DNA of 64,000 bases, taken from assembly GCA_947501325.1 (NCBI GenBank), contig CANMVC010000003.1, positions 37,830 to 101,829 of the forward strand, in the 5' to 3' direction. The position numbers were made by a program, and so were the translations under genes. Below, piece by piece: positions 1,407 through 56,006 of the stretch. The stretch comes from an uncultured Sphingomonadaceae bacterium (GTDB lineage Bacteria > Pseudomonadota > Alphaproteobacteria > Sphingomonadales > Sphingomonadaceae). The notes below the pieces were generated by a model. The model did not search any database, was not told where the DNA came from, and saw only the letters and a list, made by a program, of their open reading frames with translations. The first letter of the stretch is position 1. Each line of letters opens with the position of its first letter.

Positions 1407-2478
1407 GATCTGATTCCAAATCTAGGTAGTCTCTGATTTCAGAGTATCGAGACCTGAAATACGCCATTTGGCTGTTGTCACGGAATGTTAATCGATCAAA
1501 GGATGCTTTGCTGTTTGACAGAGAAATTGGTTCAGGAGCAAAGCTCCCACCTGTTATTACCGAGGACATATCAAGATATTTGAATCCATCGCCTGGGACG
1601 ATCGCTTTGAAGTTGGCCGGCCGGACCAGTGAAACTGGAATACCATATGCAAAACAAACAATGAAAATATGCATTGCAGTTGTTACAATCTTTTGGAATC
1701 CATGCAGCTGTTCTATGAGCAATTCAATCTCTGCGGGCGTGCGAGCATAAGGCAAAATAGTTTCAATCGGGCCCTTTAACGACGTCCATTCATCAACGTG
1801 ATTCACGTGCGGAACGAATGCGAGGTCTGATCGCATCGCTTTGGAGGGTGGGGAATAGCGAAAAGGCATGAAAAATCCTGGATCACAAGGTTGAAAAATG
1901 GGCTTTTGATCAACCTCCAATATTTTATCTTGTGATAGCAGTCCTCGGACCGAGACATAATTACTGGCATCACCAATCCTATCAGTTTGCGAATTGAATC
2001 CGGAACCCAGAACGATAGATAGCTTGTTGGCTGATGCCAAAATCGATCCAACGGATAGAAAATGAGGCTCCAATCTCTGGTCCCTGAGATGCAAATATTT
2101 TATTGGCTGATCGGTTATCTTGCTAATCAAATAGGGTGCCAACCAGTCACCAAAATTGCCTTTATACGGTAGTGCAGTCCAAGAGCACCTGATCGTTTTT
2201 TTATTGCTTACAGATTCGTAGAACTGAATGGCTTCTCCCCAACGTGCAAGATCGCCCATGCCGTGATTATACGCATGCTCAATGTCTGTCCGTCGAAAAC
2301 GGGAGCTCGTTATTCGCAGTTTGACTGCAAAGGAAGATGAGTTTCTGCTGAGCAATTTCCCCAATATTAGGTTTGCACGATAATAACAGGAGGCCAACAA
2401 ACGCAAAAACTTGGGTGATGAGAGCTTGAACGCCAAATTTTTAATATATCTTATTGTCATGCTTACATTAATCTTCAA
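1399..2478 (-). CDS. Polysaccharide pyruvyl transferase family protein (ExoV/CsaB-like)
   Basis: 359 aa. Carries the NFGDWLAPYL motif (the N-x-GD-x-L signature of PF04230-type pyruvyl transferases) followed by SVGSIL...VLGSGF. Embedded in a glycan operon. Confidence 0.7.
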   Translation of the reverse strand: MKINVSMTIRYIKNLAFKLSSPKFLRLLASCYYRANLILGKLLSRNSSSFAVKLRITSSRFRRTDIEHAYNHGMGDLARWGEAIQFYESVSNKKTIRCSWTALPYKGNFGDWLAPYLISKITDQPIKYLHLRDQRLEPHFLSVGSILASANKLSIVLGSGFNSQTDRIGDASNYVSVRGLLSQDKILEVDQKPIFQPCDPGFFMPFRYSPPSKAMRSDLAFVPHVNHVDEWTSLKGPIETILPYARTPAEIELLIEQLHGFQKIVTTAMHIFIVCFAYGIPVSLVRPANFKAIVPGDGFKYLDMSSVITGGSFAPEPISLSNSKASFDRLTFRDNSQMAYFRSRYSEIRDYLDLESDRD

Positions 2479-3601
2479 CGAGATCGCAAATCTTCATTAT
2501 TTGACTTTCTCGATCAAATCTAATGTCAGGGACCCATGGAGCTGCAATTATTTCCAAATTTGAACGCGATGACAGTTCGCGAACCAAGTCATCTGCGTCA
2601 CCTGGCGTGTACTGAATAACATTCTTGCTTTCTAATAGACCATCTATTTCGGGAGACGTCTGTGAGTTAATCATGGGACTTCCGATAAACAGATAATCAG
2701 AAAGCTTGTTTGTAATCGATTGGGCAGCCCCCGCTTTTATTGAATTCACTGACGCGTCCATTTCTGATATATGCTCTCGTAGCTCCTTATATGGAACAAA
2801 TCCGTAGAGAAAAGTGCCCTCATATCCGGCTTCCGCAATAGCTCCTTTTTCGGGGCCATCACCGAAAACATGGAATTCGAAATCCAATCCGCGCTTTCTA
2901 AGTTGTGTGACCGCAGCACAGACTGTTTTTATATCATAGCTGAACGATAGTGTCCCAAAATAGAAGAGTTTGATTGGAAATTTTTTCTTCTTGGTTTTTT
3001 CAATACTTAAATCAGATCCTAGGTAACACACATGCTTTTCTGGCGTAAGTATAACGTCTGAATAGGCTTCCAAATAGGTCTGAGAAACGCTTATCACGGA
3101 ATCAGCTTTTGAGAATATATATCCCTTCTTTTTTTGAAACGGGGCGAAGATAAATTTCATTACCGAAAATACACTGAAATTATGCCAAATAGCTTCAGGC
3201 CATAAGTCTTGAATATCTACAAAAAACTTCGCCTTTCTATTTGTCTTTGCAATATGATGACAGGGTCCGATCATCGGATAAGAAGCATATACAACATCAT
3301 ATTTGGAGAATTCCGGAAATTTTCGGCCGAAATTCTTTGAAAAGAAAAAAATATTCAAAAACCTACCAATCCCGAAGTTTCTCTTATATCGGAGGGTCTG
3401 AATCAGCGTCACCTTGAAATTCTCAGTGTCCAATTCGGAATAATTGCGCTTCCGTTTAAGTCGGTGAATAAAATCACTCGTAACCAGTTCAACACTATGG
3501 CCTCGCCGGGTTAGTTCTTCAGCGACAGCGGCAAAGCGATTTGGCAAACCATCTATCGCAAAGCTTGTATAGGGCGCGACAAGCAGTATCTCTTTTTTCA
3601 T
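2468..3601 (-). CDS. Glycosyltransferase family 4 (GT-B fold, WbuB-like)
   Basis: 377 aa. The N-terminus MKKEILLVAPYTSFAIDGLPNRFAAVAEELTRRGHSVELVT is typical of GT4. The C-terminal half has the F.G....KG / E-x7-E-like region. Confidence 0.8.
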   Translation of the reverse strand: MKKEILLVAPYTSFAIDGLPNRFAAVAEELTRRGHSVELVTSDFIHRLKRKRNYSELDTENFKVTLIQTLRYKRNFGIGRFLNIFFFSKNFGRKFPEFSKYDVVYASYPMIGPCHHIAKTNRKAKFFVDIQDLWPEAIWHNFSVFSVMKFIFAPFQKKKGYIFSKADSVISVSQTYLEAYSDVILTPEKHVCYLGSDLSIEKTKKKKFPIKLFYFGTLSFSYDIKTVCAAVTQLRKRGLDFEFHVFGDGPEKGAIAEAGYEGTFLYGFVPYKELREHISEMDASVNSIKAGAAQSITNKLSDYLFIGSPMINSQTSPEIDGLLESKNVIQYTPGDADDLVRELSSRSNLEIIAAPWVPDIRFDRESQIMKICDLVED

Positions 3602-3631
3602 ATTTTGATAGTCTTCCGGCTATTGCATAAA

Positions 3632-4762
3632 CTATTCACCGTTTAGGCAGTCGCGAATTTCCTGGATAACTTCATCTTGTTCACCATCACTCATATCGCT
3701 TCCGGAAGGAAGACAAAGGCCATTAGCAAACAATCGCTCATCTAAGCCCCTTCCCACATACAAACTTCCAGAAAAGAGCGGTTGTAAATGCATTGGCTTC
3801 CAAAGTGGGCGAGATTCAATGCCGTGCTTCAACAGATGCAGGCGAATGCAATCACGAGTTTTCCCGCTTTTAAGAGGATCAACAGTAATCGCAGTCAACC
3901 AGCGGCTGCAATGAGACCAATTAGGTTCGGGCATAAACTCGATCCCCTCTACATTGTCAAGTGCGTTACGATAGCGCGAAAAAATAGTCCGCCGACGACG
4001 AACGCGCTCGTCCAGTACGCTAAGCTGGCCCAAGCCTATCGCCGCCGCGATATTGCTCATCCGATAATTGTAGCCATAGGTTGAATGTTCATAGTGAGGG
4101 GCTAAGTCGCGAGCTTGAGTCGAAAGAAAGCGCGCACGGTCTATTGCGAGCCTGTCACGAGATACGAGCATTCCACCACCGCCGGTTGTAATCATCTTGT
4201 TTCCATTAAAGGACAAGATCGCAAAATCGCCGCCGCTGCCACATTGGCGATCTTGATATCTTGCGCCGAGCGATTCGGCACTATCAAAAATGAGTTTAAC
4301 ACCAAAATTTTGCGCCAAACCTTCTATACGGTTGATGTCGCAACTCTGCCCATACAGGTCAGTTGCTATGATTGCTTTTGGTAGGCTATTTTTGGCTGCA
4401 GCTTTTTTTAATGCATCCTCAAGCAGCTCGGGACAAATGGTCCAGCTTTCACTCGAGATGTCGAAAAAACGCGGCTGTGATTGCTCATAGAGAACAGGAA
4501 AAACCCCCCCCGCGAAAGTCATTGAGCAGACCCATACCTCGTCGTCAGCTGTTAGATCAAGTAAACGCAATGCAAGATGCAAAGCTGCCGTTCCACTGCT
4601 CACGGCCAAGCAATGGACTTGTCCTCCTACATAACCCGCCACGCTTTCTTCGAATTGATCCAGCTGAGGGCCAACTGGCGCAATATAGTTACTTTCAAAC
4701 GCTTGTCGGACGTGCTCTAGCTCGGAGCCGCCCATATGTGGTCGCGATAGATGAATGCGCAT
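3632..4762 (-). CDS. DegT/DnrJ/EryC1/StrS-family PLP-dependent nucleotide-sugar aminotransferase (PglE/WecE-like)
   Basis: 376 aa. N-terminal SELEHVRQAFESNYIAPVGPQLDQFE, and SFNGNKMITTGGGGMLV containing the conserved PLP-binding lysine context. Confidence 0.85.
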   Translation of the reverse strand: MRIHLSRPHMGGSELEHVRQAFESNYIAPVGPQLDQFEESVAGYVGGQVHCLAVSSGTAALHLALRLLDLTADDEVWVCSMTFAGGVFPVLYEQSQPRFFDISSESWTICPELLEDALKKAAAKNSLPKAIIATDLYGQSCDINRIEGLAQNFGVKLIFDSAESLGARYQDRQCGSGGDFAILSFNGNKMITTGGGGMLVSRDRLAIDRARFLSTQARDLAPHYEHSTYGYNYRMSNIAAAIGLGQLSVLDERVRRRRTIFSRYRNALDNVEGIEFMPEPNWSHCSRWLTAITVDPLKSGKTRDCIRLHLLKHGIESRPLWKPMHLQPLFSGSLYVGRGLDERLFANGLCLPSGSDMSDGEQDEVIQEIRDCLNGE

Positions 4763-26821: not shown

Positions 26822-26919
26822 ATCGTGCTCTTGCGCAAGCAGGAGTCTGATCCAGCCGTCTTCAAGTTTTGCCGATTGAGGAGATGGACCTCGGACCGAG
26901 TCCGAGCTACGATAGCGCC

Positions 26920-29460: not shown

Positions 29461-30576
29461 ATGAGTGACATCGAAGTAATAAAAGACAAATATCTCGGTG
29501 AGATAAGTGCCGCCACCGATGGCGATGCGCTGGAAACCATCCGCGTCGCTGCGCTGGGCAAGAAGGGCGAGATTTCGCTGCTGCTCAAAACCCTCGGTAA
29601 AATGACGCCCGAAGAACGCCAGACGGAGGGACCGAAAATCAACGGTGCCCGCCAGGCGGTGGCCGACGCGATTGCTGCGCGTAAAGAAGCGATGGAGAGC
29701 GATGTTCTGAACGCCCGCCTCGCCACCGAAAAACTCGACATGACTTTGCCGCCGCCCAGCGCGCCCAAGGGCAGCATTCATCCGGTCAGTCAGGTCATGG
29801 ACGAACTGGCCGAGATATTCGCTGATCTGGGCTTCTCGGTCGCGACCGGTCCGGAAATCGAAGATGACTGGCACAATTTCACCGCGCTCAACATTCCGGA
29901 AACCCATCCGGCGCGCGCGATGCATGACACTTTCTATTTCCCGCAGACTGACGATCAGGGCATGCCGAAACTGCTGCGTACGCATACCTCGCCTGTGCAA
30001 ATCCGCACGATGATGGATGTTGCCAAGCAAACTGACGGCGAGGGTGAACCGATCTACATTATCGCACCGGGCCGCACCTATCGCAGTGATAGCGATGCCA
30101 CCCATACGCCGATGTTCCATCAGGTCGAAGGCCTGGTGATCGACAAAAATATTCATATGGGTCATCTCAAATGGACACTCGAAACCTTTGTTCGCGCCTT
30201 TTTCGAGCGCGACGATATCGAACTGCGCCTACGCCCAAGCTATTTCCCGTTCACCGAGCCCAGTGCCGAAGTCGATGTCGGATTTTCCGTTGAAAAAGGC
30301 CGCCGCATCATCGGCGGTGATCCGCGCGGCGACAATGGTGGCTGGATGGAAATTCTCGGCTCCGGCATGGTCCATCCCAATGTGATTAGAAACTGCGGGC
30401 TTGATCCCGATGTCTGGCAGGGCTTTGCCTTTGGCTGCGGTATCGACCGGCTGGCAATGCTGAAATATGGCATGGATGATTTGCGGGCGTTCTTTGACGG
30501 CGACTTGCGCTGGACGGAGCATTACGGCTTTGACGCGCTCGACGTACCCACATTGAGCGGAGGAGTCGGCGCATGA
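29461..30576 (+). CDS. pheS: Phenylalanine--tRNA ligase alpha subunit
   Basis: 371 aa. [22 protein letters not shown] and [12 protein letters not shown] are class II motifs. Confidence 0.95.
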
Positions 30577-33047
30577 AATTTTCCCTAAGCTGGCTCAAAG
30601 CGCATCTCGATACCGATGCAAGCCTCACCGAAATTACCGACAAGCTGACCGATATCGGTTTGGAACTGGAAGGGTTGGAGAACCCCGCCGATGCCCTGCG
30701 CCCTTTCCGTGTGGCCAAGGTTATCGAAGCCGGTCCGCATCCCAATGCGGACAAGCTGCAATTGCTGAAGGTGGACGATGGTTCGGATCAGCCTTGGCAA
30801 GTTGTATGCGGCGCGCCCAATGCGCGCAAGGATATGGTCGGCGTCTTTGGCCCTCCCGGCACCTATATTCCCGGCAGTGATTTCACCCTGAAACCAGCCA
30901 AGATTCGTGATGTCGAGAGTTTCGGCATGATGTGCAGCGCGCGTGAGCTGGAACTGGGTGACGATCATGATGGTATCATTGAACTGCCCGCCGATGCCGC
31001 AGCAGCGGTTGGTACCAGCTATGCCGATTACGCACAGCTCGATGATCCGGTCATAGATATTGCGATCACACCCAATCGTCAGGATTGCATGGGCGTGCGC
31101 GGCATTGCCCGGGATCTGGCAGCGGCTGGTATCGGTACGCTGAAGCCGCTGGAAATCGGTTCCGTTGAACGCAGTGGCGCTGGCCCGGATGTCCGCACGG
31201 ATGATCCCGAAGGCTGTCCCGCCTTTTACGGCTGCACAGTGACCGGCCTGACCAACGGCACATCACCCGACTGGATGCAGGCACGGCTCAAATCGGCTGG
31301 CCAGAAACTCATCAACGCACTGGTGGATATCACCAATTACGTGATGCTCGACCATGGGCGGCCGTTGCACGTTTATGATGTGGCCAAGCTCAAGGGCGGA
31401 TTGGTTGCACGTAAAGCCAAAGCGGGCGAAAAGCTCACCGCGCTCAACGACAAAGAGTACACGCTCGACGAGACTATGACCGTCATTGCTGATGACAATG
31501 GCGCGCATGATATTGGCGGCATCATGGGCGGCGCGGAAACAGGTTCCGAAGAATCTACCACCGAAGTGTTGATCGAATGCGCCTATTTCGATCCCGCTTC
31601 CATCGCAAAAACCGGTCAGAAGCTAATGCTGACCAGCGATGCCCGTCAGCGCTTTGAACGGGGTGTGGATCCGGCGTTTCTGGATAATGGTATTGATATC
31701 GCAACGGCTTTGGTGCTCGATCTGTGTGGCGGCAATGCCAGCGAGATAACCCGCGCCGGAGCCCCACCGACGGACATGCCCACGATCAGCTATGATCCCA
31801 AGCAATGTGCCGCATTGGGCGGTATTGATGTCGCGCCGGAAAAACAGAAATCCATCTTGGAAGCGCTGGGCTTTCAAGTGACGCTGTGCTCCCGCGTAGG
31901 CGGGAGCCTATCTCCAGAAGCCGGGGCTGGCGAGGCGGTGGAGATGGATTCCCGCCTGCGCGGGAATACAGATAAAGGTCATGCTTCCTTGTGGGATGTC
32001 ACACCCCCGACATGGCGTCGTGACGTCGAGGGTTGGCAGGATCTGGTCGAGGAAGTGGTCCGGATCGAAGGGCTCGACAACGTCCCGTCCACGCCGTTAC
32101 CGCGCAAGGCTGGTGTCGCCAAGCCAACGGCCTCTCCGGAACAACTGGCCGAACGCAAAGCGCGTCGTGCTGCGGCGGCACGCGGTCTGAACGAGACAGT
32201 GACGTGGAGCTTTATCTCCGACAAGGAAGCCGCGCCCTTTGGCGGTGGCACCTGGTCGCTGGCCAATCCGATTAGCGAAGACCTGAAAGTCATGCGTCCT
32301 TCGTTATTGCCCGGCCTGATCGCCGCGGCCCAGCGCAATGCCGATCGCGGCGCATCCTCCATGCGCTTGTTTGAAGTCGGGCGCCGCTATCTCGCAACCA
32401 CCGAGCATCAGACAATCGGCCTGGTGCTGGCTGGCGAGAACAAAGCACGCAGCTGGCAAGCGGGATCAGCGACCAAATATGACGCTTTTGATGCCAAGGC
32501 CGAAGTGCTTGCCATCTTGGAAGCCGCCGGTGCGCCGATTGATAAATTGATGGATTTCGGGGAAGCGGGGGATCATTATCATCCTGGCCAGTCGGGCACA
32601 TTGCGGCTTGGGCCCAAGAAGATTCTCGCCGCTTATGGCGCGTTGCATCCCTCAGTGACCAAGGCGCTCGGCCTGAAAGGGTCAGCCGTTGGCGCAGAAA
32701 TTTTCCTCGACGCCATCCCCGTGAAAAAAGCCAAAGATCATATGCGTGAGGCCTTCGCCCCGCCTGCTCTGCAGGCGGTGACTCGCGATTTCGCTTTCAT
32801 TGTCGATGCAGACCTGCCAGCCGGCGATCTGGTGCGCGCGGTCAAAGGCGCGGATAAGAAACTGATCACTGGCGCGCGGTTGTTTGACCTGTTTGAAGGC
32901 GCAAGCGTGGGTGCAGGCAAGAAATCGCTGGCGGTGGAGATTACATTGCAGCCAGTGGAAGCGACCCTGACCGAAGAGGATTTGAAAGCCGTTTCGGATA
33001 AGGTTGTGGCGGGTGCGGCAAAGCTGGGGGCGGAACTGAGGGGTTAA
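30573..33047 (+). CDS. pheT: Phenylalanine--tRNA ligase beta subunit (carries an extra segment of about 30 aa, see findings)
   Basis: 824 aa. [13 protein letters not shown], tRNA-binding domain ([13 protein letters not shown]), B3_4, B5, and a C-terminal FDX-ACB domain. The ATGA start overlaps the pheS stop. Confidence 0.95.
31889..31967. repeat. Nested palindromic repeat element (family B) lying in frame inside pheT
   Basis: CTCCCGC-gtag-GCGGGAG / CCTATCTCC ...22 nt... GGAGATGG / ATTCCCGC-ctgc-GCGGGAAT. The same architecture occurs at 55765-55846. It translates as ...[27 protein letters not shown]... Confidence 0.7.
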
Positions 33048-33050
33048 GAC

Positions 33051-33767
33051 GTGCTGAAATATCTGTTGTCTTTGTTGGTCTTGTGTAGCCTGTCTGTTGT
33101 CTCAAAAGCAGAGGCAGCCAGCTCATATGATGTAACCGAACCAAAGAAAATCAAGTCTTCCAAAAAGCTGAAAACTGATCAAGGCGCTGTTCGATTGTCG
33201 GTCCGCCTGCAAATTCAAACAACACAAACGTTGTTCGTATATTTTGTCCGGTTAAACGATGATGGTAGCGATTCCAAACAGCTTCTACGCTTCGAAAGGG
33301 GTGCTGGGGCTCCCTTTTTAGGCAGCAATATGATTGATCCCAAACCTGTTGTTTACCGAGCGCCTCCTGGGAAATACCGCCCCATGGCCTTTACAGTAGC
33401 TTGTGAAGGCTTGCCTACCGTCGGGGCGGTATGTTCAGGCGCTATCGCTGGGTCCGGCGGTTTTCCGACCGGTCGATATTTGCAATCAAGTCCGATTGTC
33501 GAAATACGGCCTGGACACATTACTGAGGCCGGCGATTTTGTTGTTGAATATACTGGTGCAATGATCCCCGGAAAGCATGTTGGTGAAATCAAAAAAAATG
33601 GCCTTGATTATGCGCTGCGGTGGAAACCGCTCGCTCCGCTATCAAGTCAGAAATTTTCTTCGCTACCAGTACTGCGAACAAAGGATGTAGAACCGGAATT
33701 CCAATCAAAAATCACCTGTTCAAAGCGACCCAAAGGCGTGTCGCTATACATCCCGTTTGCTTGCTGA
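33051..33767 (+). CDS. Hypothetical secreted protein
   Basis: 238 aa with a GTG start 4 nt after the pheT stop. Signal peptide MLKYLLSLLVLCSLSVVSKAEA. AT-richer than its flanks. Its stop overlaps the prfC ATG (TGATG). No family recognised. Confidence 0.6.
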   Translation: MLKYLLSLLVLCSLSVVSKAEAASSYDVTEPKKIKSSKKLKTDQGAVRLSVRLQIQTTQTLFVYFVRLNDDGSDSKQLLRFERGAGAPFLGSNMIDPKPVVYRAPPGKYRPMAFTVACEGLPTVGAVCSGAIAGSGGFPTGRYLQSSPIVEIRPGHITEAGDFVVEYTGAMIPGKHVGEIKKNGLDYALRWKPLAPLSSQKFSSLPVLRTKDVEPEFQSKITCSKRPKGVSLYIPFAC

Positions 33768-54556: not shown

Positions 54557-54627
54557 CCGTTTGTCCCGAGCCTGTCGAAGGGCGTTCCAAGACCATAGAC
54601 ATCCTTCGACAGGCTCAGGACGAACGG
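54557..54627. repeat. REP-like long-stem palindromic element (family A), copy 1
   Basis: Arms of 25 nt: CCGTTTGTCCCGAGCCTGTCGAAGG ...21 nt... CCTTCGACAGGCTCAGGACGAACGG, with 23/25 complementary. A second copy is at 58284-58356. It is the source of the spurious N-terminal extension of track ORF 54561. Confidence 0.8.
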
Positions 54628-54647: not shown

Positions 54648-55742
54648 ATGAAACGCTATGCTTTTATCCTCCCTCTCGCCGCACTGCTCGCGAGCGCCCC
54701 GCTCTCAGCGCAGGAGCTTCCCAAAAAGGAATATCCCAGCCCCAATGCGATAGTCGATGCGGCCCCGGCGAGCGACTGGAAAGCCATAGCGGCCAGCGAT
54801 CTGCTGGTCATGGATCTGGCACCCGAAGCAAAGGGTGAAGCCCGCCGCGTGGTCATCCAATTGATGCCGCCGCCTTTCTCGCAAGGCTGGATCGGCAATA
54901 TCCGCAGGCTCGCCGCCGCGAAATTCTGGGACGGCACCAGCATCAACCGGGTGCAGGATAATTATGTCGTGCAATGGGGCGATGCGGGATATGACAATCC
55001 GGAATCGGGAGAAGTGGAGCAGAAGGCTTTGCCGGAGGGTTTGGTGGAAGTGCCAGAGAGTGAGTATGAGATAAAAACCAAAGAGCTGATAAAGGTTACT
55101 GCTGGTTTTGAAACAAACGAAGCTGCCGAATCGTTTGTCGAAGGAGAAGTTGCTGAAGTATTCAGGGAAGCTGAGGAGTATCGAGATACGAGACCCGGCG
55201 AGCTCCCTCCCTGGATGATATTGTGGAAAGCCCTTGGCAAAAACCCTTACTCTAAGGTTGTCGCATTCGTAGACGGATGGCCAGTTGCTGCAAGCGATGG
55301 TGGAATAGAGGAGTCGACTTGGCCCATCCACTGCTACGGCGCGGTTGGTGTAGGTCGCAACCTCTCGCCCGATACCGGCACGAGCGCCGAACTCTATACC
55401 GTTATCGGCCATGCCCCGCGCCATCTGGATCGCAATATCGCGGTGGTCGGACGCATCGTTGAAGGCATCGAGCATCTCTCCAGCCTGCCGCGCGGCAAGG
55501 GTCAGTTGGGCTTTTATGCCGATCCCAAGAAGCGCGTGCCGATCCAGTCGATCCGGCTGGGCAACGCCCTGCCCGCCACGGACCAACCCCGGTTTGAATA
55601 TCTCGACACCGCCAGCAAAGCCTTCGCCCAATATGCCGATGCCCGCGCCAACCGCCGCGATCCGTTTTTTATCAAACCGGCAGGCGGCGTGGATATTTGC
55701 AATATACCGGTGCCGGTGCGGCGGGTGAAGGCGGGAGAATAA
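54648..55742 (+). CDS. Secreted cyclophilin-type peptidyl-prolyl isomerase-like protein, paralog 1
   Basis: I prefer ATG 54648 (MKRYAFILPLAALLASAPLSAQ signal peptide). WDGTSINRVQDNYVVQWGD and ...AVVGRIVEGIEHL resemble cyclophilin F.R.....QGGD / G.V..G motifs. It is a clear paralog of 56007-57023. Confidence 0.6.
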   Translation: MKRYAFILPLAALLASAPLSAQELPKKEYPSPNAIVDAAPASDWKAIAASDLLVMDLAPEAKGEARRVVIQLMPPPFSQGWIGNIRRLAAAKFWDGTSINRVQDNYVVQWGDAGYDNPESGEVEQKALPEGLVEVPESEYEIKTKELIKVTAGFETNEAAESFVEGEVAEVFREAEEYRDTRPGELPPWMILWKALGKNPYSKVVAFVDGWPVAASDGGIEESTWPIHCYGAVGVGRNLSPDTGTSAELYTVIGHAPRHLDRNIAVVGRIVEGIEHLSSLPRGKGQLGFYADPKKRVPIQSIRLGNALPATDQPRFEYLDTASKAFAQYADARANRRDPFFIKPAGGVDICNIPVPVRRVKAGE

Positions 55743-55764
55743 AGATTTAATCTAAAAGCCTGGT

Positions 55765-55846
55765 GCCCCTGCGCAGGCAGGGGCCCATCTCGGACGCTCT
55801 CGTTTAACCGCATCGGCGGGAGATGGACTCCTGCCTGCGCAGGAGC
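55765..55846. repeat. Nested palindromic repeat element (family B), intergenic copy
   Basis: GCCCCTGC-gcag-GCAGGGGC / CCATCTC ...27 nt... GGAGATGG / CTCCTGC-ctgc-GCAGGAG. Same architecture as the pheT-internal copy, with compensatory stem changes. Confidence 0.75.
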
Positions 55847-56006
55847 ACAGACCAAATGATTTTCCCCTTTCCTACATCGGGTCAAATCGGCTAGCTTTCC
55901 CCCATGACGCATTCATCAATCCTTCCTGCTCCGCCCGCCGCTGACCCGCTTTTTTTGGCCCTTTCCGGGCGCAAAGATTTTTCCGCTTTGGGGGGTGTGA
56001 CCCTGT

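Follow-up and report, generated by a model that had tools for sequence, protein, structure and literature searches.

An in-frame dimer of palindromic repeats in the pheT gene of a free-living marine sphingomonad and its insert-free alleles

How does a gene for an essential translation enzyme come to carry a strongly palindromic segment within its coding sequence, and how does that segment persist? This question is raised by pheT, which encodes the beta subunit of phenylalanine--tRNA ligase, in a 64,000-nt stretch of DNA (hereafter the window) from an uncultured Sphingomonadaceae bacterium (GenBank assembly GCA_947501325.1, contig CANMVC010000003.1, positions 37,830 to 101,829 of the forward strand). 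The original prediction, made from the letters alone, was that a nested palindromic repeat element had inserted in frame into this gene. Our analyses favor a more specific explanation, which we consider very probable as a whole: an in-frame dimer of repetitive extragenic palindromic (REP) sequences, tolerated as a protein loop, whose presence or absence in relatives comes about via recombination. The element is a non-autonomous REP dimer of about 89-90 bp that is widespread in Sphingomonadales. Two inverted stem-loops of the published CGTC-1 type, each with an 8-bp stem and a 4-nt loop, make it up together with the CCATCTCC/GGAGATGG boxes and 24 nt of spacer. One copy sits in frame in the pheT codons for the tip of a B5-domain beta-hairpin, where it would give a translated, disordered, and tolerated surface loop. 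A short recombination tract has swapped the insert-bearing for the insert-free haplotype between close relatives, and the arms would be kept by structural selection or gene conversion while the spacer drifts.

The pheT gene (30573-33047, plus strand) of this Parasphingorhabdus is an intact open reading frame (ORF) of 824 amino acids (aa) in the operon rpmI-rplT-pheS-pheT, a gene order common to the window and three related loci (L001, L002, and L003). The protein shares 92-94% identity with Parasphingorhabdus PheT, with all five Pfam domains, and HMMER aligns it to Escherichia coli PheT (3pco_B) with E = 9e-137. In this alignment, window residues 1-437 and 473-813 correspond to E. coli residues 1-438 and 443-783, leaving a loop of 35 residues in the window vs. 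4 in E. coli. In L001, the closest relative found, pheT identity to the window is 96.5% in total and rises to about 99% once the loop and the 3' end are set aside; L001 lacks exactly 102 bp, corresponding to window positions 31880-31981 (34 codons, plus strand). These boundaries come from nucleotide alignment with L001, which is empty, and with Parasphingorhabdus cellanae (L002) and L003, which are filled, as well as from a protein alignment of 120 homologues. About 75% of the best 120 Parasphingorhabdus/Sphingorhabdus-like PheT proteins lack the insert and have a 4-residue loop (LGFxVDxNWQVTVPTWRRD), so the segment is lineage-specific, as predicted.

Within this segment, a covariance model and the inverted repeat delimit a full-length REP dimer at 31883-31972, which scores on both strands because it is palindromic. 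Read on the plus strand, it begins with the tag CTGT (31884-31887) and the left hairpin GCTCCCGC-GTAG-GCGGGAGC (31888-31907), whose 8-nt arms are 100% complementary around a 4-nt loop. The left box, CCTATCTCC (31907-31915; family consensus CCATCTCC), pairs with the right box in a helix that is 96% paired across the family. Between the boxes lies a 24-nt spacer (31916-31939) that codes for part of PEAGAGEAV and diverges between orthologues at the background rate. The right box GGAGATGG (31940-31947) is defined by its sequence and by the arm pattern described below, and it leads into the right hairpin ATTCCCGC-CTGC-GCGGGAAT (31948-31967) and the tag ACAG (feature end 31971), an inverted-repeat pair with 0 mismatches to the arm pattern that codes for ...DSRLRGNT. 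All of the sequence features originally listed (the hairpins, the boxes, and an intergenic twin) are present; the position also stands, although the full extent is slightly wider than the 31889-31967 first given.

The 33-nt arms of the pheT element are 82% complementary, and its RNA folds at -61.4 kcal/mol compared to -36 +/- 3.6 kcal/mol in dinucleotide shuffles (z = -7.1; 0 of 200 shuffles as good), with one long hairpin (-61 kcal/mol) as the minimum free energy fold. Searched across the window, a 25-nt pattern for the arm hits the two arms of the pheT copy and the two of the intergenic copy and nothing else, against 0 hits expected from shuffles. After the stem, three of these arms have the unpaired tail CCA and the pheT left arm has CCT, and all four run into the box CCATCTCC. 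Both pheT arms and one intergenic arm carry the tag CTGT, and the other intergenic arm carries TGGT. An Rfam scan of the whole window at gathering thresholds returned three tRNAs only, with no family at the element.

The intergenic twin is an intact copy at 55760-55851 that begins 21 nt past the stop codon of an ORF ending at 55742 and scores 79.6 and 78.3 bits. Its inverted repeat (55763-55848) has arms that are 90% complementary and a fold z of -9. A third, degenerate copy lies downstream of prs (26822-26912, plus strand); it was identified by alignment, scores 18.5 bits (E = 0.02), and is orthologous to an intact P. cellanae copy (L002 6170-6260) that scores 65 bits. In L001 and L003, the spacer downstream of prs consists of unrelated sequence with a different small hairpin.

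The scores come from a covariance model, R1, built from 39 dimers from other genomes plus the window intergenic copy (55761-55850), with the pheT copy left out. R1 scores the pheT copy at 73.7 bits on the plus strand and 75.3 bits on the minus strand (E about 1e-15). Since this is comparable to the intergenic copies, the pheT segment belongs to the repeat family, in agreement with the predicted in-frame insertion of a family member. R1 finds three copies in the window, more in six of the seven related loci, and none in L001; in related Parasphingorhabdus loci, copy density is roughly one per 10-30 kb. With one genome per species, the degenerate arm pattern occurs at more than 119 loci, which is a lower bound. 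Among the matches listed, the great majority are from Sphingomonadales (Sphingopyxis, Sphingobium, Novosphingobium, Sphingomonas, Parasphingorhabdus, and Blastomonas), and a few are from beyond this order (Devosia, Legionella, and others). The pattern is also matched by 16 IMG/VR viral contigs (L004-L019), three of which have two matches, in two cases as inverted dimers.

The canonical dimer of the family reads CGTCA-TTCCCGC-GAAG-GCGGGAA-TCCATCTCC, a spacer of ~24 nt, then GGAGATGG-ATCCCCGC-CTTC-GCGGGGAT-GACG. Most of the 48 dimers extracted are 87-92 nt long; the five outliers measure 81 or 104-106 nt. Those stem positions that the search pattern does not fix form Watson-Crick pairs in 142-144 of 146 arms, and as many as four pair types occur. 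The five bases after the stem are GACGA, GACGG, or GACGC in 59 arms within the 12 most frequent classes listed; together with the last stem base these arms read TGACG, the reverse complement of CGTCA, and CGTCA-tagged copies dominate the scan. The ACAC/ACAG class, which is the window type, is a minority among the 146 arms. When 40 dimers are modeled as two local hairpins plus the box helix, 96.3% of positions are paired (95.6-96.9% by helix) and the covariation score is 0.285 vs. 0.150 in shuffles, compared to 90.7% and 0.167 for a single long arm-to-arm hairpin. Because the local hairpins pair and covary better, the conserved unit of the family is the local REP stem-loop.

How often the family lies within genes is harder to count. 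A coding/intergenic census by stop-free stretches was uninformative, since 78 of 146 matches fall in stretches of at least 250 aa owing to the GC-rich genomes. A Pfam check of 10 candidates supported two further in-frame hosts, in which domains flank or span the element: a MiaB/RimO-like enzyme with a copy between its UPF0004 and Radical_SAM domains (L115 554-642), and an acyl-CoA-synthetase-like protein with a copy within its AMP-binding domain (L080, about 186-280). Three other candidates (L068, L109, and L118) were rejected because the element lies upstream of all matched domains. P. cellanae has another copy (L002 8798-8876, 40 bits) in the rplT-pheS gap, where it runs into the start annotated for pheS; with PheS at 377 aa there vs. 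371 aa in relatives, this start codon may have been miscalled into the repeat.

What does the insert do to the protein? All insert lengths are multiples of three (102 nt in the window and 78, 99, and 114 nt in relatives), and every variant keeps the ORF intact in the stop-free frame ...C-S/P-R-x-G-G-x-x-S-P...E-M-D-S/P-R/G-L-R.... An AlphaFold2 model places the insert as coil between strands E435-438 and E474-477 of the B5 domain, which would be the tip of a beta-hairpin; the expected B5 loop is thus borne out, at low model confidence, and it probably lies on the surface. Insert pLDDT (predicted local distance difference test) is about 26-31, compared to 75-81 in the flanking B5 residues. The insert is presumably translated into a loop of 26-38 residues, rich in Gly, Pro, Ser, and charged residues, that is probably disordered, surface-exposed, and tolerated by the enzyme. 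Besides the intact ORFs, this view draws on the canonical operon context and on an identity to P. cellanae that is higher in protein (92%) than in nucleotides (83.7%).

This loop has received more than one insert. We distinguish four palindromic types plus an AT-rich, non-palindromic type D (20 aa). The window carries type A (34 aa), as do P0001, P0002, and P. cellanae (P0003); about 25 proteins have type B (26 aa), and type B' is 33 aa long. Type C (38 aa) derives from another dimer, in which the boxes read CCATTTCC and the right end bears a GACG tag (TGACG being the reverse complement of CGTCA), and is a separate event. The orthologous inserts are palindromic themselves and further copies of the element exist, contrary to both observations named beforehand as grounds for rejecting the original prediction. 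Types B and B' have a common left arm and spacer, A and B' have a common right hairpin and equally long 3' extensions with about 56% identity (a count by eye), and all three differ by fully compensated stem swaps; they may be of common origin. The type C dimer occurs in the same pheT loop of L021, a metagenome-assembled genome (pheT 1958-4519), where a further copy (4520-4603, about 60 bits) starts at the first base past the pheT stop codon and the PheT protein has a unique 25-aa C-terminal extension.

Other lineages (e.g., L142, L146, L147, and L148) have 7, 9, 19, or 20 extra, non-palindromic residues at the same hairpin tip, so this site tolerates changes in length. Two of these expansions, GDLNPQNMEFSKAFLASFAIT in L142 and EALDINGGLTDPQNAFDDL in L147 (1501-1866), have the motif (L/T)-(N/D)-P-Q-N in common, and thus a different, older loop expansion is present in these lineages. 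A metagenome search for pheT DNA yielded eight loci, none with a REP insert, among which loop length varies.

If the loop is merely tolerated, are the hairpins free to decay? Between the window and P. cellanae, whose pheT genes are 83.7% identical in nucleotides and 92% in protein, 4.7% of the 64 arm positions differ (9.5% of third codon positions), compared to 16.6% (40.1%) in the rest of pheT (Fisher p = 0.004; 0.003 for third positions) and 16.7% in the spacer. Between L045 and L059, the arms differ by 3.1% (third positions 4.8%) vs. 20.4% (42.2%; p = 8e-5 and 2e-4). Two further pairs agree, making four pairwise comparisons that are not independent, and the spacers diverge at about the background rate or above (16.7-37.5%). 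Over the same window-P. cellanae divergence, the dimer downstream of prs has decayed in the window, with about 29% arm differences by our own count and 18.5 vs. 65 bits. The pheT copy therefore appears unusually well kept at sites that are silent for the protein, and two processes may maintain the arms: selection for a structure in the DNA or RNA, or gene conversion with the rest of the family as donors.

The first of these options leads to the strongest rival explanation, in which the hairpins have been exapted: they would be kept for an action in cis, either on the decay, processing, or pausing of pheST mRNA or as a DNA site for a nucleoid or topology protein, with the peptide as a by-product. 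We consider this unlikely, though worth weighing. It would account for arms whose divergence is 3-8 times lower than that of the remaining sequence of an essential gene, third positions included, next to a spacer at background, and for the decay of the orthologous intergenic prs copy over the same divergence. It would also fit the compensated swaps between variants, such as TCCCCGC/GCGGGGA vs. CTCCCGC/GCGGGAG and ATTCCCGC/GCGGGAAA vs. ACCCCGGC/GCCGGGGA. However, gene conversion would likewise hold the arms at consensus, and it would account for a right hairpin that was exchanged as a whole; moreover, the absence of the insert from about three quarters of the best 120 relatives makes it dispensable. 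Because the comparisons are few and non-independent, we hold a functional role as a minority hypothesis. The joint proposition, that the pheT REP hairpins are under nucleotide-level selection for a cis-acting role and that the insert haplotype has been passed between Parasphingorhabdus species by short-tract recombination, is more doubtful still. If it is true, example roles would be a structured RNA that tunes pheST mRNA decay or processing, or co-translational folding at the B5 boundary.

The second part of that proposition, recombination, is also part of the explanation that we prefer, the tolerated in-frame REP dimer, and the filled and empty alleles bear on it directly. Across most of pheT outside the indel region, identity between the window and L001 is 98.7-99.6%, yet it falls to 85% in the 40 nt preceding the indel and to 60% in the 30 nt that follow. 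Within this patch, the window is 97.5-100% identical to the insert-bearing L003, to which it is only 90-96% identical elsewhere, while L001 resembles the insert-free L143. In a neighbor-joining PheT tree computed without the insert columns, proteins that carry the insert are interspersed with proteins that lack it. Since divergent flanks travel with insert status, recombination rather than fresh transposition or excision swapped the alleles. Judged from these alignments, the insert-bearing and insert-free states are old haplotypes that were exchanged by short-tract homologous recombination, an exchange that would explain the scattered carriers. De novo excision in L001 is ruled out by the differing flanks of the indel. 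In addition, 41 of the 83 pheT mismatches between the window and L001 cluster at the gene's 3' end (last ~300 nt, about 32750-33047), which suggests a second recombination or insertion boundary.

Could the element instead be actively mobile, having recently transposed into pheT or been precisely excised by a RAYT or Y1-type transposase acting in trans? The patchy presence across the PheT tree and the several different inserts in the same loop might be read this way, and GTAG-type REPs are thought to be mobilized by RAYTs (PMC3733652). We nevertheless regard active mobility as very improbable. Mismatches reach 40% in the 30 nt following the indel and 15% in the 40 nt preceding it, although elsewhere the two genes share about 99% identity, and the flanking states travel with the insert, which is the signature of allele replacement; comparison of filled and empty sites reveals no target-site duplication; CGTC REPs have been published as lacking a dedicated transposase (PMC3733652); and no transposase was seen in the loci examined. 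The gene between two dimers in L078, for example, encodes a superoxide dismutase rather than a transposase.

The last alternative, an ordinary lineage-specific loop expansion in which the palindrome is coincidental or results from protein-level selection, draws on the natural variability of tip length and on the non-palindromic loops of L142, L146, L147, and L148, but it is scarcely credible and we consider it refuted by the R1 score of 74-75 bits (E about 1e-15), the fold z of -7, an arm pattern expected 0 times, and compensated stem swaps that alter amino acids.

Several observations weigh against the tolerated REP dimer as we have framed it. The 4-nt tag adjacent to the stem is CTGT or TGGT in the window copies, not CGTC, TGTC, or CCTC. 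Comparison of filled with empty sites showed no target-site duplication around the copy in pheT, the intergenic copy, or copies of type B, and there was no transposase, with no Pfam match to Y1_Tnp or RAYT among the genes called in seven related loci. Spacer identity among types A, B, and B' is a mere 38% or so (counted by eye), which bears on whether there was one insertion or several. The AlphaFold2 model is poor overall (mean pLDDT 57), such that its local B5 topology alone is usable. Finally, our view spans a 64-kb window, and a second pheT copy may be present elsewhere in the genome.

Which known repeats does the element resemble? The closest are the CGTC-tagged REPs defined by Di Nocera, De Gregorio and Rocco (2013, BMC Genomics 14:522; PMC3733652), who accept TGTC and CCTC as variants of the tag and conclude that these REPs have no dedicated transposase. 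CGTC-1 repeats have an 8-bp stem, a 4-nt loop, and a CCA tail, occur mostly as inverted dimers, and lie mostly just downstream of genes; their hosts are alphaproteobacteria including Sphingomonas wittichii, Sphingopyxis alaskensis, Sphingobium chlorophenolicum, and Erythrobacter litoralis (PMC3733652). In-frame CGTC-1 dimers in real genes code for 20-30 aa (PMC3733652). Additional file 3 of that paper lists E. litoralis dimers in glyS, ileS, truB (RHPREGGDPANLGDHDESQLDPRLRGG), rsmE, and dnaE2, and Sphingopyxis alaskensis tRNA synthetases are also named as REP hosts; pheT is not among the listed hosts, and "phenylalanyl" has 0 occurrences in the supplements (PMC3733652). In-frame REPs in aminoacyl-tRNA synthetases of free-living Sphingomonadales are therefore already known and the pheT case adds to them; the original suggestion that such an event would be notable in a free-living alphaproteobacterium was overstated, given the glyS, ileS, and truB entries (PMC3733652). 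The window copies have the 8-bp stem, 4-nt loop, short tail, inverted-dimer organization, and dispersed copies, mostly intergenic and 3' of genes, of CGTC-1, and the reading frame that yields CPREGGDPSP...EMDPGLRR in the window family is also that of the truB peptide RHPREGGDPANLGDHDESQLDPRLRGG. They differ in the tag, CTGT/TGGT instead of CGTC, and are therefore best filed, on sequence criteria, as a tag-variant relative of CGTC-1 and not a strict member.

The dimeric organization also recalls REPINs, which Bertels and Rainey reportedly described in 2011 as two inverted, GTAG-tagged REPs with a short spacer, mobilized by RAYTs whose gene is flanked by REPs. Like these, the window element comprises two inverted REPs and a short spacer in a unit of ~90 bp that could form one long hairpin. 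However, it has no GTAG tag, no RAYT was found among the genes of related loci, and covariation in the window family favors two local hairpins over the long one.

The textbook precedent raised by the original prediction was the Rickettsia palindromic elements (RPEs), which, as Ogata and colleagues are said to have described in 2000 (Science 290:347) and 2002 (Genome Res 12:808), insert in frame into protein genes, housekeeping genes included, and yield surface peptides compatible with function. RPE-1 is about 100-150 bp long, RPEs are described as old and decaying, and their host, Rickettsia, lives as an obligate intracellular bacterium and has a reduced genome. The window palindrome resembles them in lying in frame in a protein gene whose ORF and conserved domains remain intact. 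It differs in that RPE-1 is longer and unrelated in sequence, and in that its host is a free-living marine sphingomonad with few copies whose arms are well kept. The link has turned out to be closer than analogy, since CGTC-1 repeats in R. conorii are the same as RPE-6, and this published equation is the only homology link (PMC3733652).

A further comparison is to QMITE1 and QMITE2 of Coxiella burnetii, small non-autonomous repeats that are sometimes in frame, as in EnhC, whose C-terminus gains 33 aa in this way (Wachter et al. 2018, PMC5896051). The window element is likewise a small non-autonomous repeat that adds residues in frame. However, QMITEs are true miniature inverted-repeat transposable elements (MITEs) of 150-400 bp with direct-repeat target duplications (PMC5896051), whereas the window element has the inverted arms of a MITE without a flanking direct repeat. 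Moreover, QMITEs mostly form C-terminal extensions or lie within hypothetical ORFs, as opposed to forming an internal loop of an essential enzyme.

A second, unrelated palindromic repeat family is present in the window between tRNA-Ser(gga) and the next ORF (54557-54627), with 25-nt arms CCGTTTGTCCCGAGCCTGTCGAAGG and CCTTCGACAGGCTCAGGACGAACGG that are 92% complementary and a fold of -50.6 kcal/mol. Members of this family occur in pheT of L003 (69 bp at the position of window 31170) and of L022, and lie in frame at PheT aa ~193 in P0001 (...AEPVEASGSNRPSTSSGRT...) as well as in P0028, P0039, and P0074 (...SAELVEA...RPSTGSGLTEL). On these matches, pheT has apparently been struck by two repeat families at two loops. 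Downstream of pheT, a 238-aa ORF with a signal-peptide-like N-terminus (33051-33767) separates it from prfC; this gap contains shorter, different ORFs in L001 (162 aa) and L020 (151 aa) and no ORF in L002 or L003.

What does this locus add to the biology of these repeats? Since the empty allele is still found in a relative with ~99% identity along most of pheT, it permits a direct comparison of the gene "before" and "after" the insert. Three aspects go beyond the published catalogue of intragenic REPs, which carries no report of recombining presence/absence alleles, repeated inserts at one loop, or conservation of arms at synonymous sites (PMC3733652). First, presence and absence appear to be exchanged via short recombination tracts and not by transposition. 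Second, within one genus, no fewer than three different inserts have entered the same B5 tip, and another loop (aa ~193) took a second family, so PheT would have permissive sites. Third, the stems stay constant at synonymous sites while the spacer drifts, which may reflect a structural role or ongoing gene conversion. For annotation, the peptide signatures ...REGG-PSP... and ...EMD-RLRG... can serve to spot loops of REP origin, both in real proteins and in spurious ORFs. Altogether, the pheT dimer shows that selfish palindromic DNA can enter and persist in an essential translation enzyme of a free-living bacterium, and that this phenomenon is not limited to Rickettsia.

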